Below, piece after piece: positions 27,078-35,757 of a stretch of 64,000 bases of DNA. Both the position numbers and the translations under genes were made by a program. Where the stretch lies: assembly GCF_055900595.2 (NCBI RefSeq), contig NZ_CM148325.1; one strand, written 5' to 3'. The notes under the pieces were generated by a model. That model ran no database searches. It had not been told where the DNA came from and saw nothing but the letters and a program-made list of their open reading frames with translations. How positions within the stretch are numbered: the stretch's first letter is position 1; each line of letters opens with the position of its first letter.

Positions 27078-27169
27078 GGAAGGGGTCCTCCTCATGGGGG
27101 GATACGAGAAACGGGCAATTCTACGGCAACTCTTCAGGCAGGGAAAATAATCTGACAGAAAATTGCCGT

Positions 27170-28180
27170 TCAGTGCTGCCGCAAAAAGTCTTCAATGTCA
27201 GTCAGTGAGGATACCCCTTCCATCGGACCTTGTCGCATTACGGCGAGCGCGCCGCTGGCATTTGCATATTGCAGCGCCTTGTGTGCCGGGATACCGGATA
27301 AGAAAAGAGTGACAAACGTTGCGCCAAAGCAGTCGCCTGCACCCGTTGGATCGATTATTTCGATATCGTGGCCTGCAACATGCTGGGCGTGTAATGTTCC
27401 GTTTTTAAGCTTGTAATAGCTGGCCCCACGCTGGGCGCGTTTTATCGCCACATGTTTTACGCCGCCGTGGAGAAGATCGCTAACAATCTGTTCTTCTGAC
27501 AGATTTTTGTGACGCGCGAAGAAAGGGAGTTCGCTTTCGCTGGGGATAAAAATATCCGTATATTCAATCAAATAATCGAGAGCCTGCGCCATTTCAGGAA
27601 TACTCAGCATCTCTTTGCGAATATTGGGATCGAAAGAAACGGTGCCGCCAGCCGATTTGATCGTCGTTATTGCTTTACGCATGACATCGATCATGCGAAA
27701 TGAGAACAATGATGAGCCCACAATATGCAGATGGTTACACTGTTTTAGCAGATCCTTATCAATGTGCTCGGCAGTAAACAAACCGCAGGCGCTGTTAGGG
27801 ATATTAAAGACGAAATCCCGCTGCTGGGGATTTTGATAACTCACGAATGCCGTACCTGTTACGGCATTGTTCATAACATGGATCCCATCGGTAATGACAC
27901 CTTCATGACGGAGGCGCTCTATAATGAGTCGGCCAAAATCATCATTACCAACACATCCGAAGAAGATGGCCCGATGGGACAGTTTTGCCACCTGAGCAGC
28001 AAAAATTGCTGGTGCACCGCTGGGAAATGGCCCGATAAACTCCCCAGGCTGAGTGAATTTTTGATGTGGGTTGCGGGACAAAAACTCGGCCAGCAATTCG
28101 CCCATAGCGCAGATAGTTATTGTCACAAAACCCCTCTCATTCCTGAAGCCTTTCGCGATTGGACCAGGTAAAGCACTCAT
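27170..28180 (-). CDS. PfkB-family carbohydrate kinase (island kinase A)
   Basis: 336-aa ORF; PfkB signature DPTGAGDCFG and the GG dipeptide region; paralogous to 33661-34623; true start may lie at an internal GTG or ATG 18-25 codons downstream (alignment with the paralog starts near TITICAMGELL). Confidence 0.85.
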   Translation of the reverse strand: MSALPGPIAKGFRNERGFVTITICAMGELLAEFLSRNPHQKFTQPGEFIGPFPSGAPAIFAAQVAKLSHRAIFFGCVGNDDFGRLIIERLRHEGVITDGIHVMNNAVTGTAFVSYQNPQQRDFVFNIPNSACGLFTAEHIDKDLLKQCNHLHIVGSSLFSFRMIDVMRKAITTIKSAGGTVSFDPNIRKEMLSIPEMAQALDYLIEYTDIFIPSESELPFFARHKNLSEEQIVSDLLHGGVKHVAIKRAQRGASYYKLKNGTLHAQHVAGHDIEIIDPTGAGDCFGATFVTLFLSGIPAHKALQYANASGALAVMRQGPMEGVSSLTDIEDFLRQH

Positions 28181-28967
28181 TACTGGTATAAAGGATAACG
28201 AAATCAGCCGACTGCAATTGTTGCTGATATTGTTCGTTAATGCTGCGGCTGACGATCACATTTTCTGCCTGATGCAAATGTCCAATGGCAGCCGTTGATG
28301 GCGCAGGATCGGCGGCAACGATAACTGTCTTATTCTGGGCATGATCGAAACAGAGCTGCCAGGCAGCGGCAAGTCTGGGAACGTTGATATTTAAAGTACC
28401 ATCAGCATCCAGATGGCTGATTTCCAGAATGCTGTGTGTAATGGTGAAATGCTGAAGTGCCTGTTCGAGCGGTTTTCCGGCCAGTGCGGTGTCGGGGCGC
28501 AGCATTTCACTGCCAGCCAGTATTATTTCGCCATCAATAAACTGATTTGCCAGCAGCGCATGTTCGGGATCGTTGGTGATCAGACGCAGTTTTTTCACTT
28601 CGCTGAGCAATGGAATGATCTTACGGCAGATTGTCCCATGTCCAAGAAATAGCGTGTCACGATCGCGAATTAACCGTGCGCAATGTCGTGCTATTTCCAT
28701 TTGTTGTGCCAGAGACAATGGCGCGATCGGTTGTATCGCTTCTGGTTCAGAGGAGAGGGGGGTCGCAATAGCACCGCCAAATGATCGCTTTAAATATCCC
28801 TGTTGCTCCAGATAACTGAGATCGCCGCGGATCGTCACGCCAGAGACACCAAGTTGCGCAGATAAGTCATCAACTTTGATTTCACCCTGGGCGGCAACAA
28901 TTTCTGCAATTTTTAATCTGCGTTTCAGTAGGTTAGACGATTTTCTCGGCACGTTAACACTCTTCAT
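28137..28967 (-). CDS. DeoR-family transcriptional regulator
   Basis: 276 aa; N-terminal DeoR-type winged HTH (RRLKIAEIVAAQGEIKVDDLSAQLGVSGVTIRGDLSYLEQQGYL), C-terminal sugar-phosphate-binding-like domain; upstream of kinase A and divergent from the aldolase-transporter operon. Confidence 0.85.
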   Translation of the reverse strand: MKSVNVPRKSSNLLKRRLKIAEIVAAQGEIKVDDLSAQLGVSGVTIRGDLSYLEQQGYLKRSFGGAIATPLSSEPEAIQPIAPLSLAQQMEIARHCARLIRDRDTLFLGHGTICRKIIPLLSEVKKLRLITNDPEHALLANQFIDGEIILAGSEMLRPDTALAGKPLEQALQHFTITHSILEISHLDADGTLNINVPRLAAAWQLCFDHAQNKTVIVAADPAPSTAAIGHLHQAENVIVSRSINEQYQQQLQSADFVILYTSNECFTWSNRERLQE

Positions 28968-29308
28968 TGGCCTTTAATGCGTAACACTATAGCCCCTTGT
29001 ATTTTTCTTTGAAAGTTATCCTTCAATAATATCGACAATTCGAAAAGGAAATCATGGGCCAGAAATCGCAACGAAAATAGCTTAATGCATTGAAAAATAG
29101 ATGAATTAATTCATATTTATGCAGAGGTGTTATTGGTTTCACTTGCAAAGTGAAAAACAAATTAAGTTATTTTTTGTAAGTTATTTTGATGATATTCGAC
29201 ATGTATCACGCTTTTTACCGCTTTTGCTGTGCTAGTTTGCTTTCAAAATGAAAGTGAAGATTCTCTTTCTTCATTTTGTAAGGTGAACGACAAATATCAG
29301 GAGCTGCG

Positions 29309-30163
29309 ATGTACATCATTTCAAGCAAAAACATGCTGAGAAAAGCCCAGTCAGAGGGATATGCCGTCCCTGCTTTCAACATTCATAACCTTGAAACTTT
29401 ACAGGTAGTTGTTGAGAGCGCTGCACAACTTCGCTCTCCCGTTATGCTGGCGGGAACACCGGGTACTTATCGTTATGGCGGCGTGGGAAGTTTGATTTCG
29501 TTAGTACAATCGCTGGCTCGCGAGTACAACCTACCGTTAGTCCTGCATCTCGATCATCATGAAGAGTGTGATGACATTTTTAACAAGGTCCGCGCAGGGA
29601 TCCGTTCTGTCATGATTGATGGTTCCCATTTGCCATTTGAAGACAACATTGCGCGAGTGCAAGAAGTTACCGCCTTTTGCCATTGCTTTGATGTTAGCGT
29701 TGAGGCCGAGCTAGGGCGTCTTGGCGGTCAGGAGGACGATCTGCTGGTGGATGAAAAAGATTCAGCTTATACCTCACCAGCCGCAGCTGCAGAGTTTGTT
29801 CAACGTACCCAAATTGACTCTCTGGCGGTAGCAATAGGCACTGCACATGGTTTATATGCGCATGAACCACGTCTGGATTTTGTGCGGCTGGAACAAATTC
29901 GCCAGCTGGTAGAAATTCCGCTGGTGTTGCATGGAGCTTCAGGTCTATCGGAACAGGACGTTCAGCTCTGTATTCGCCACGGTATTTGTAAAGTAAATGT
30001 CGCGACAGAATTGAAAATTGCGTTTGCCGATGCATTAAAAGGATATTTCTACAACAATCCAGCGGCAAATGATCCTCGTCATTATATGCAGCCGGCAAAG
30101 GCCGCCATGAAGGAAGTTGTAACCCGCATTATTGGCGTCTGTGGCAGTGAAGGAAAAATTTAA
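29309..30163 (+). CDS. class II ketohexose-1,6-bisphosphate aldolase (GatY/KbaY/FbaA family)
   Basis: 284 aa; N-terminus [39 protein letters not shown] and metal-binding histidines ([18 protein letters not shown]) closely parallel GatY/KbaY by recall; AGGAG Shine-Dalgarno 5 nt upstream. Confidence 0.88.
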
Positions 30164-34623: not shown

Positions 34624-35666
34624 AAAACGAAATTTGGTCGTGGATTGGCGATCTCTCGCAGGTTGCCGGAATTAAACACTATGAGTTACGCAGTGGCAGA
34701 TCAAAGGGGACAGAAGCGTTTGATGTCCGTACTGGTGCGGGATTGGCATTTACGGTGGTAAAAGATCGCGCGCTGGATATTGCATGGGCCAGCTACAAGG
34801 ACACTGCGCTCTCTTTTATCACCCCCAACGGCATTGTCGCCCCCGCTTTTTTTGAGTCTCAGGGCAACGGGTTTTTACGTAGCTTCTACGCGGGGTTACT
34901 GACTACCTGCGGACTTAGCTACATTGGCACGCCCTGTGAGGATAACGGAGAAACGCTGGGGTTACACGGGCGTTTGGCTGCGACTCCAGCAGAAGAGGTG
35001 GGGTATCGCACAGAACGGACCGACGACGGCATTGAATTTGTCATCAATGGCAAAGTACGGGAAACACGATTGTTCGGTGAAAATCTGACGCTGGAAAGGA
35101 CCATTCGCTGCCGTTATGGCGAAAATGTGCTGCGCATTGAAGACAAGGTGACTAATCATGGTTTCACCCGCCAGCCGCTGCAAATTCTTTATCACTTTAA
35201 TTACGGCTGGCCTTTATTATCGCCACAGGCAGAAATCTTGCTGTCGGCTAAAAGCGTAACGCCACGAACCCCGCATGCGGCGGAAGGGTTAACCAGTCAT
35301 CTGGAGATTTGTACCCCACAGCCCAGTTTTGACGAGCAGGTTTACTATCTCACGTTGAATAGCGACAGTCAGGGGATGAGTAAAGTTGCGCTGGTGAACG
35401 CCGAACTGGGGTGGGGAATTTACGAGAAATTCGACACCATGCAGCTACCCAACTTTATCCAGTGGAAAAATTTAGGCGCGGGTGAATATGTTATGGGGCT
35501 GGAGGTCAGCAATAGTTTTCCTGACGGTCGTGATAAAGAACGAGCGCAGGGGCGTCTGCCCTTTATAGAGCCAGGGGAAACAAAGACATACTGCTTTGAG
35601 CTGGGAATTGTTGATGGCGATGCTGAAATTAGCGCGTTGAAAGCGGAAATTGCAAGCTACCGTTAG
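34620..35666 (+). CDS. conserved protein of unknown function; possibly an aldose-epimerase-like fold (DUF4432-type), not verified
   Basis: 348-aa ORF whose ATG overlaps the kinase B stop (ATGA); no recognisable catalytic motif by eye; the family assignment is a guess from memory. Confidence 0.6.
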   Translation: MKNEIWSWIGDLSQVAGIKHYELRSGRSKGTEAFDVRTGAGLAFTVVKDRALDIAWASYKDTALSFITPNGIVAPAFFESQGNGFLRSFYAGLLTTCGLSYIGTPCEDNGETLGLHGRLAATPAEEVGYRTERTDDGIEFVINGKVRETRLFGENLTLERTIRCRYGENVLRIEDKVTNHGFTRQPLQILYHFNYGWPLLSPQAEILLSAKSVTPRTPHAAEGLTSHLEICTPQPSFDEQVYYLTLNSDSQGMSKVALVNAELGWGIYEKFDTMQLPNFIQWKNLGAGEYVMGLEVSNSFPDGRDKERAQGRLPFIEPGETKTYCFELGIVDGDAEISALKAEIASYR

Positions 35667-35682
35667 CTAACGGCAATAAAAA

Positions 35683-35709
35683 CGCCGGGCAGCGTTAACA
35701 GGCCCGGCG
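35683..35709. terminator. hairpin between the convergent island operon and accC; likely bidirectional terminator
   Basis: CGCCGGGC / GCCCGGCG inverted repeat, an A-tract on one side and TT on the other. Confidence 0.6.
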
Positions 35710-35757
35710 TTGATTACGTTCTTTGCTAAGCGCGATGAAAACACCGCGCGTCACAAA

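Follow-up and report, generated by a model that had tools for sequence, protein, structure and literature searches.

The window, the whole stretch of DNA analysed here, comprises 64,000 nucleotides of contig NZ_CM148325.1 (NCBI RefSeq assembly GCF_055900595.2). At positions 27078-35757 it carries eight intact genes in place of the 108-bp yhdT-accC spacer of K-12-type strains. We conclude with high confidence that this island is the Escherichia coli D-tagatose utilization locus, in which tagK and tagR are transcribed divergently from tagYABCDE at the yhdT/accC site. The locus is already known, and its substrate, pathway, regulator and phylogroup distribution have been published.

Correspondence with the tag locus of E. 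coli Nissle 1917

A gene-by-gene comparison shows that each of the eight proteins matches its counterpart in E. coli Nissle 1917 (L003) in length, is 96.9-99.4% identical to it and contains no internal stops. Position, gene order and orientation are identical to those of ECOLIN_RS18670-18705, and the whole 15 kb of island plus flanks is colinear with Nissle at 97.2% identity, interrupted by 3 gaps. The operators, the CRP-like site and the promoters Ptag and Preg lie at distances from the start codons that match those published. Because genes, lengths and colinearity agree and the control elements lie at the published distances, we consider the window to hold an allele of the known tag locus.

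The locus has been described in two studies. Ha et al. 2022 (iScience; PMC9720028) reported that Nissle 1917 carries, between accC and yhdT, a region of 8.5 kb and eight genes that is absent from K-12. Nissle grows on D-tagatose, and deletion of the six-gene operon, or of the operon kinase alone, stops this growth (PMC9720028). On a plasmid, the six genes give tagatose growth to K-12, BL21 (B) and W. Growth on tagatose occurs both aerobically and anaerobically, and tagatose induces the operon from >40-fold to >1000-fold (PMC9720028). K-12 with the operon needs pfkA but not pfkB for this growth, as the delta-pfkA strain with the operon fails to grow (PMC9720028). Park et al. 2025 (Microb Cell Fact; PMC12226905) named the genes tagK, tagR, tagY, tagA, tagB, tagC, tagD and tagE and found by differential RNA sequencing (dRNA-seq) one transcription start per operon, two in all. 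They also predicted Ptag, Preg, a CRP-like site and two operators, found that TagR is a repressor responding to tagatose and proposed free D-tagatose as its effector (PMC12226905).

The original prediction, of an accessory sugar uptake and catabolism island that is absent from K-12, agrees with these reports (PMC9720028) and with the distribution described below. D-tagatose, the first of the candidate substrates that it named, is the substrate shown experimentally in Nissle (PMC9720028). The novelty that it implied falls, because the proteins are near-identical to those of a characterized operon of known substrate. As a finding the locus is therefore of little importance, and it has already been turned into a tagatose-inducible expression system. 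Its remaining value lies in tagK and tagE, the two genes outside the established route. The tagR-tagK association, the fold and invariant residues of the DUF4432 protein, a probable tagK start and a possible third operator go beyond the literature and are leads only.

Gene content and family assignments

The eight open reading frames between yhdT and accC are all intact, two on the minus and six on the plus strand, and the NCBIfam and Pfam assignments agree with the gene types first proposed. Amino acid identities are to the Nissle proteins.

27170-28126, minus strand: tagK (ECOLIN_RS18705), putative PfkB-family sugar kinase, co-transcribed with tagR; 98.1% identity
28137-28967, minus strand: tagR (ECOLIN_RS18700), DeoR-family repressor of the tag operon, 276 aa; 99.3% identity, repressor role from PMC12226905
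29309-30163, plus strand: tagY (ECOLIN_RS18695), class II tagatose-1,6-bisphosphate aldolase, 284 aa; 97.2% identity
30199-31089, plus strand: tagA (ECOLIN_RS18690), periplasmic sugar-binding protein, RbsB-like, 296 aa; 99.3% identity
31150-32649, plus strand: tagB (ECOLIN_RS18685), tandem-domain ATP-binding cassette (ABC) ATPase, 499 aa; 99.4% identity
32650-33639, plus strand: tagC (ECOLIN_RS18680), ABC permease, 329 aa; 99.1% identity
33661-34623, plus strand: tagD (ECOLIN_RS18675), D-tagatose kinase forming tagatose 6-phosphate, 320 aa; 99.4% identity, deletion phenotype from PMC9720028
34620-35666, plus strand: tagE (ECOLIN_RS18670), DUF4432 protein with a galactose-mutarotase fold, 348 aa; Pfam and predicted structure

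TagY passes the tagatose-bisphosphate class II aldolase model TIGR01858 (472.7 bits, cut-off 443.55) and scores 521.2 bits against the GatY subfamily model NF009374 (cut-off 383). No GatZ/KbaZ-like partner gene was found in the island, nor in the versions of Klebsiella huaxiensis, Yersinia and Gilliamella. For both kinases the best NCBIfam model is the tagatose kinase NF049991, an equivalog with a cut-off of 420, against which the TagD orthologues of K. huaxiensis and Yersinia score 411.1 and 426.8 bits. Both TagD and TagK retain the C-terminal DPTGAGDCFG, which contains the PfkB catalytic-base motif DPTGAGD and is invariant in 12 aligned sequences. TagD also matches PDB entry 3iq0 at E 3e-218. 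The TagD-equivalent structures 3iq0 and 3k9e have been in the PDB since about 2009 under the label 'putative ribokinase II', which is older than the tagatose assignment. For TagR, the best curated model is AgaR, at 105.6 bits far below the 260-bit cut-off.

TagABC shares the common architecture of ribose, xylose and arabinose transporters and has a distinct specificity. Against the substrate-specific NCBIfam equivalogs for ribose, allose, xylose, arabinose, galactofuranose and autoinducer-2, every score was below the cut-off (RbsB, 161.9 versus 337; xylose ATPase PRK13549, 553.9 versus 699; AraH, 282.6 versus 378), and assignment to a known substrate family was rejected on this ground. The ratio of nonsynonymous to synonymous substitution rates (dN/dS, here and below relative to Nissle) is 0.011 for tagA. 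Between tagA and tagB there is a stem-loop (31089-31151, plus strand) with 29-nt arms that are 76% complementary. Stem-loops after the binding-protein gene are a frequent device of ABC operons for raising the binding-protein mRNA over the later cistrons, and this one may act in the same way.

The transporter scores also bear on the natural substrate. D-tagatose could be a gratuitous laboratory substrate, the natural one being another rare ketohexose, a deoxy-sugar or a related gut compound served by TagK and TagE. Little free D-tagatose occurs in nature (PMC9720028), the established tagatose route gives no role to two of the eight genes, the ABC components fall under all substrate-specific cut-offs, and DUF4432 homologues occur in clusters for other sugars. 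Nevertheless, we regard this explanation as quite unlikely, given that tagatose induces the operon >1000-fold and supports both aerobic and anaerobic growth (PMC9720028), that TagR responds to tagatose (PMC12226905), that TagY passes the curated tagatose-bisphosphate aldolase model, and that the rhizobial homologues of transporter and kinase are also tagatose systems (PMC9720028).

Predicted tagatose pathway

Based on orthology to Nissle, TagR made from the weakly regulated Preg would sit on the operators tagO1 and tagO2, over the Ptag start, when tagatose is absent. The CRP-like site upstream of Ptag is the predicted path of the observed glucose repression. When tagatose is available and glucose is not, tagYABCDE would be induced >40-fold to >1000-fold, and free D-tagatose would be imported by the ABC transporter TagABC. 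TagD would then convert D-tagatose to tagatose 6-phosphate, the host PfkA rather than an island gene product would form tagatose 1,6-bisphosphate, and TagY would cleave this to dihydroxyacetone phosphate and glyceraldehyde 3-phosphate. That the operon is necessary and sufficient, that tagD and pfkA are essential, the induction, the start sites and the repression by TagR have been shown experimentally in Nissle or K-12. The role of each transporter subunit, the aldolase role, direct binding of TagR to the operators and the identity of the effector are inferred only.

Thus, ABC import, phosphorylation to a ketohexose 1,6-bisphosphate and class II cleavage stand as originally predicted. The assignment of the second phosphorylation to a second island kinase does not, since PfkA is needed (PMC9720028).

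The following points weigh against this reading of the locus. Function in the source strain is transferred by orthology at ~97-99% identity. TagD itself, at 414.2 bits, is slightly below the 420-bit cut-off of the tagatose kinase model. Finally, the need for PfkA was shown only in K-12 with the six genes, where tagK is absent, so TagK may share in the second phosphorylation in native strains.

TagK and the tagR-tagK pair

In the annotation, tagK encodes 311 aa from an ATG at 28105, as does the Nissle RefSeq entry; this ATG has no Shine-Dalgarno sequence. An alternative GTG at 28126, seven codons before the annotated ATG and 10 nt past the tagR stop, has a GAGGGG Shine-Dalgarno sequence 4 nt upstream and gives a protein of 318 aa. 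The resulting N-terminus, 'xxxICTxGELL', fits all homologues. Judging from these sequence features, tagK probably starts at this GTG and the annotated start would be wrong.

TagK is 48% identical to TagD. On NF049991, TagK-type proteins score 347-369 bits (346.6 for TagK of the window) versus 411-427 for the TagD type, and phosphosugar-kinase models (1-phosphofructokinase, 1-PFK, and hexose kinase) give TagK only 47-50 bits. Its dN/dS of 0.12 indicates that tagK is under purifying selection. In Nissle, TagK is unable to replace TagD and tagK is induced only ~2-fold; tagR and tagK were found in Enterobacterales only, which the authors read as a limited role (PMC9720028). TagK-type and TagD-type proteins differ in class-specific residues at several conserved positions, among them FNIPNSACG(L/F) versus FNIKNAACGK and SFR versus SFH. 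An attempt to read the TagK substrate from these residues was dropped, as such differences are not assignable to substrate without a ligand-bound structure.

Intact paralogous kinases that both carry the catalytic motifs could also make the island self-contained, one PfkB kinase forming the monophosphate and TagK, as a tagatose-6-phosphate 1-kinase, forming the 1,6-bisphosphate. The TagK-type kinase always adjoins a GatY-type aldolase gene, in ABC-type loci and in those of the phosphotransferase system (PTS) type alike, its failure to replace TagD would fit a different substrate, and the pfkA test was made without tagK. Yet six genes that do not include tagK suffice in K-12, B and W, and PfkA is needed in K-12 (PMC9720028). 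Induction of tagK is slight next to that of the operon, and the nearest curated family of TagK is the free-sugar tagatose kinase (347 bits), not the phosphosugar kinases. A self-contained island is therefore improbable in our view, and PfkA is preferred as the second kinase.

A divergent pair of DeoR-regulator and TagK-type genes beside a GatY-type aldolase gene is also found in other ABC-type loci, at the accC/yhdT site in K. huaxiensis and elsewhere in the genome in Y. pseudotuberculosis. The same pair occurs, with related operator-like repeats, at the PTS-type tagatose loci of K. pneumoniae, S. enterica and Gilliamella. It lies upstream of gatY in the locus records L006 (9198-10951), L007 (9157-10948) and L008 (9172-10966), and is present in L004 and L005 as well. 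The TagK-type kinases of the PTS-type loci are 58-60% identical to TagK of the window versus 53-55% to TagD. The link of tagR-tagK to PTS-type loci is absent from PMC9720028 and PMC12226905, and the literature library searched held nothing relevant on a DeoR regulator and kinase paired upstream of gatY in Klebsiella or Salmonella; we regard the link as a modest new lead.

The presence of the pair with both types of uptake suggests, as a hypothesis, a regulatory or effector-forming role. TagK may be a low-level, regulation-linked kinase that makes a phosphorylated TagR effector and not the bulk second kinase. More specifically, and tentatively, tagR-tagK could be a portable sensing module in which a constitutive kinase turns trace tagatose into a phosphorylated effector, probably tagatose 6-phosphate, that releases TagR. 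Such a module would explain the pair at both ABC and PTS loci, the scant induction of tagK and its failure to replace tagD. Counting against it, free tagatose is the effector proposed in PMC12226905, and a phosphorylated effector rests only on general knowledge of the DeoR family. If TagK does make the TagR effector, the free-tagatose model of regulation would need revising, with consequences for how the inducible system is designed.

Control region between tagR and tagY

The divergent control region is 341 bp long, as in Nissle, and 93.5% identical to it. It contains the following elements.

28986-29013, minus strand: Preg, -35 TTCAAA, 16-nt spacer, -10 TATAGT; same sequence in Nissle
29195-29210, plus strand: CRP-like site TTCGA-N6-TCACG, directly upstream of Ptag; as predicted in PMC12226905
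29212-29238, plus strand: Ptag, -35 TTTTTA (TTTTTG in Nissle), 15-nt spacer, -10 TAGTTT at 29233-29238; from the sequence and PMC12226905
29240-29258, plus strand: tagO1, predicted operator CTTTCAAAATGAAAGTGAA, overlapping the transcription start; 1 mismatch to Nissle, 0.02 chance matches expected
29264-29282, minus strand: tagO2, predicted operator CTTACAAAATGAAGAAAGA; exact match to Nissle, 0.03 chance matches expected

From the dRNA-seq start sites in PMC12226905, transcription of tagRK would start at ~28978; the start of tagYABCDE is placed at ~29245.

The motif TTTTGTAAG has just two copies in the 64-kb window, at 29172-29180 and 29274-29282, 102 bp apart and both in the tagR-tagY spacer. 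The latter copy lies within tagO2, and the former is upstream of the CRP-like site at a position that is kept in Nissle and K. huaxiensis. Only tagO1 and tagO2 have been predicted as operators in print (PMC12226905). The copy at 29172-29180 is a candidate third TagR operator that could permit DNA looping.

Two more dyad symmetries are present in the control region, at 29101-29114 and 29137-29155. The sequence ATGAATTAATTCAT reads ATGAATATATTCAT in Nissle; its two central substitutions mirror each other and preserve the palindrome. The dyad TTTCAC-N7-GTGAAA is the same in Nissle and partly conserved in Yersinia. A GAAAGT at 29011 overlaps the -35 of Preg, and would fit weak autoregulation.

TagE, a DUF4432 protein

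The 348-aa protein that was initially left without a family matches DUF4432 (PF14486) at E 5e-104. This is the sole Pfam family matched, with no match of TagE to Aldose_epim (PF01263). To our knowledge, the DUF4432 family has no assigned activity, and a search for DUF4432 in the literature library used here found nothing relevant. An AlphaFold model built from 39 homologues (predicted local distance difference test, pLDDT, 91.1; predicted template modelling score, pTM, 0.90) has the beta-sandwich fold of galactose mutarotases. It matches 3ty1, a structural-genomics entry, with a template modelling score (TM) of 0.90, and the GalM proteins of B. subtilis, L. lactis and human as well as the yeast hexose-6-phosphate mutarotase with a TM of ~0.6 and a probability of 1.00. 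In sequence searches of the PDB, both the single sequence and the 39-sequence profile reach 3ty1 only and give no link to GalM; the link between TagE and GalM is thus drawn from the fold comparison.

Three residues of TagE, H116 (LHGR), H192 (YHFNxG) and E295 (GxEPxN), are invariant in the 39 homologues. Their motifs resemble the catalytic His/His/Glu motifs of GalM, with His96, His170 and Glu304 as the putative counterparts, a match of motifs rather than of superposed residues. Distant DUF4432 genes are found in other sugar clusters, directly after the transporters and before the first catabolic enzyme. One of them is flanked directly by an ABC transporter on one side and by a dehydrogenase plus lactonase on the other, the place where a mutarotase is classically found.

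From fold and gene context, we infer that TagE may be a mutarotase-type enzyme that speeds the exchange of ring forms or anomers of tagatose (or tagatose 6-phosphate) toward the form used by the next enzyme. A companion idea to the sensing module is that TagE would be a ketohexose mutarotase supplying the furanose form for phosphorylation at C6. The dN/dS of tagE, 0.35, is the highest of the locus, a value derived from only 22 substitutions, and the cluster in Yersinia lacks tagE. Given the raised dN/dS and this absence, tagE may be dispensable, helpful rather than essential. The tag locus offers a defined substrate for testing DUF4432 activity.

Site, distribution and origin of the island

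Homology to the empty, K-12-type site stops at window position 27076/27077, the start codon of yhdT, and restarts exactly at 35758, the stop codon of accC. The alignment of the junctions therefore shows that 27078-35757, the interval first delimited for the island, is the exact replaced interval. In J53, a K-12 derivative (L001), yhdT and accC are adjacent and 108 bp apart, as originally stated for K-12. A clean insertion was ruled out: at normal alignment stringency the 108-bp spacer is not seen again at either junction, so the K-12 spacer was replaced and not split. The features that border the island are as follows.

26835-27077, minus strand: yhdT, left conserved flank, 80 aa, GTG start; empty-site homology ends here
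35681-35696, no strand given: G+C-rich, terminator-like hairpin between the convergent tagE and accC; from the sequence
35758-37107, minus strand: accC, right conserved flank; empty-site homology resumes at its stop codon

The island was found in 1422 of 5426 complete E. coli genomes (~26%), with at least 80% coverage in 1419 of these, so that it is nearly always complete, and the panF-yhdT flank was found in 5425 of the 5426. All 1422 full-island matches are chromosomal; there were 2 plasmid matches, both partial, and the plasmid-sized record H25 is a partial match that covers 11% of the query and the aldolase gene only. The island is typical of E. coli phylogroups B2 and F. About one quarter of sequenced E. 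coli, mostly B2 and F and including extraintestinal pathogenic (ExPEC) and adherent-invasive (AIEC) strains as well as the probiotic Nissle, can use D-tagatose via the island. D-tagatose is a food sweetener that is poorly absorbed by the host.

The allele in the window is rare, as only 8 of the 5426 genomes match the island at 99% or more. For window positions 23000-38000 the number of such genomes is 8-10, the best match being the dog isolate Z0117EC0005, and the source lineage is unusual. The prmA, panF and accC genes of the window are 96-97% identical to K-12 and to Nissle alike, which places this lineage farther from K-12 and Nissle than those two are from each other.

One explanation for the island would be that the source strain recently acquired a mobile element by site-specific integration between yhdT and accC. 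The G+C content is ~0.42-0.45 over 28500-34500 versus 0.53-0.56 in the flanks, the distribution is patchy (26% of genomes), and horizontal transfer was inferred by the published authors (PMC9720028). However, no integrase, transposase, tRNA gene or flanking direct repeat was found at the island. Divergence from Nissle is alike in island and flanks, with synonymous divergence (dS) of 0.04-0.26 for island genes against 0.03-0.16 for the flanking core genes, over 15 kb at 97.2% identity. The same accB-accC / yhdT-panF site is occupied in K. huaxiensis (L004 2287-10960) by the complete eight-gene island, whose proteins are 71-86% identical to those of the window (TagK 78%, TagD 86%, TagR 71%, TagY 83%). 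We therefore consider recent mobility very unlikely, and these observations point to long residence at yhdT/accC. Probably the island is old at this site and has been spread or lost via homologous recombination of the flanks.

Within the island, divergence from Nissle is mosaic, with dS of 0.21-0.26 for tagY and tagA and 0.04-0.07 for tagR, tagK and tagE. This pattern of synonymous differences suggests recombination inside the island.

Comparison with known systems

The window and the Nissle tag locus share the accC/yhdT site, the eight genes with their order, orientation and protein lengths, the 341-bp spacer, and the operators and promoters. Unlike Nissle, the window carries an allele from a divergent E. 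coli lineage, ~97% identical in nucleotides, with 1 mismatch in tagO1 and 1 in the -35 of Ptag, and with tagY and tagA more diverged than the other island genes.

As far as they are described in PMC9720028, the rhizobial clusters (Sinorhizobium meliloti tagABCDE and Agrobacterium tumefaciens C58) likewise combine an ABC transporter, a kinase that forms tagatose 6-phosphate and a DeoR-type regulator, but they then use a tagatose-6-phosphate 4-epimerase that leads to fructose 6-phosphate. In the E. coli island the slot of the rhizobial epimerase is held by the unrelated DUF4432 protein, and the route goes via PfkA and a class II aldolase.

The PTS-type pathway of Klebsiella and Salmonella (gatY-tagK-tagT-tagH-gatZ...; Shakeri-Garakani et al. 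2004, as cited in PMC9720028) also ends, in that account, in tagatose 1,6-bisphosphate and a GatY-type aldolase. The aldolases of these loci are 67-71% identical to TagY, and a divergent DeoR regulator and TagK-type kinase lie upstream, with related operator-like repeats. In contrast, the PTS carries out both uptake and first phosphorylation there, to tagatose 1-phosphate according to the same account (PMC9720028). The second kinase, a member of the 1-PFK family, shares 20-25% identity with TagD or TagK; these loci also encode a GatZ partner and lack a DUF4432 gene. The Klebsiella 'tagK' is a tagatose-1-phosphate kinase and should not be confused with tagK of E. coli.

The E. coli gat (galactitol) and aga/kba (N-acetylgalactosamine) operons differ from the tag island in the PTS uptake of other substrates and in encoding a GatZ/KbaZ partner, of which the island has none. 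GatY and KbaY are fully active only together with GatZ and KbaZ. These operons nevertheless share with the tag island the path from tagatose 6-phosphate through PfkA and tagatose-1,6-bisphosphate to a class II aldolase, as well as DeoR-family repressors with several operators.

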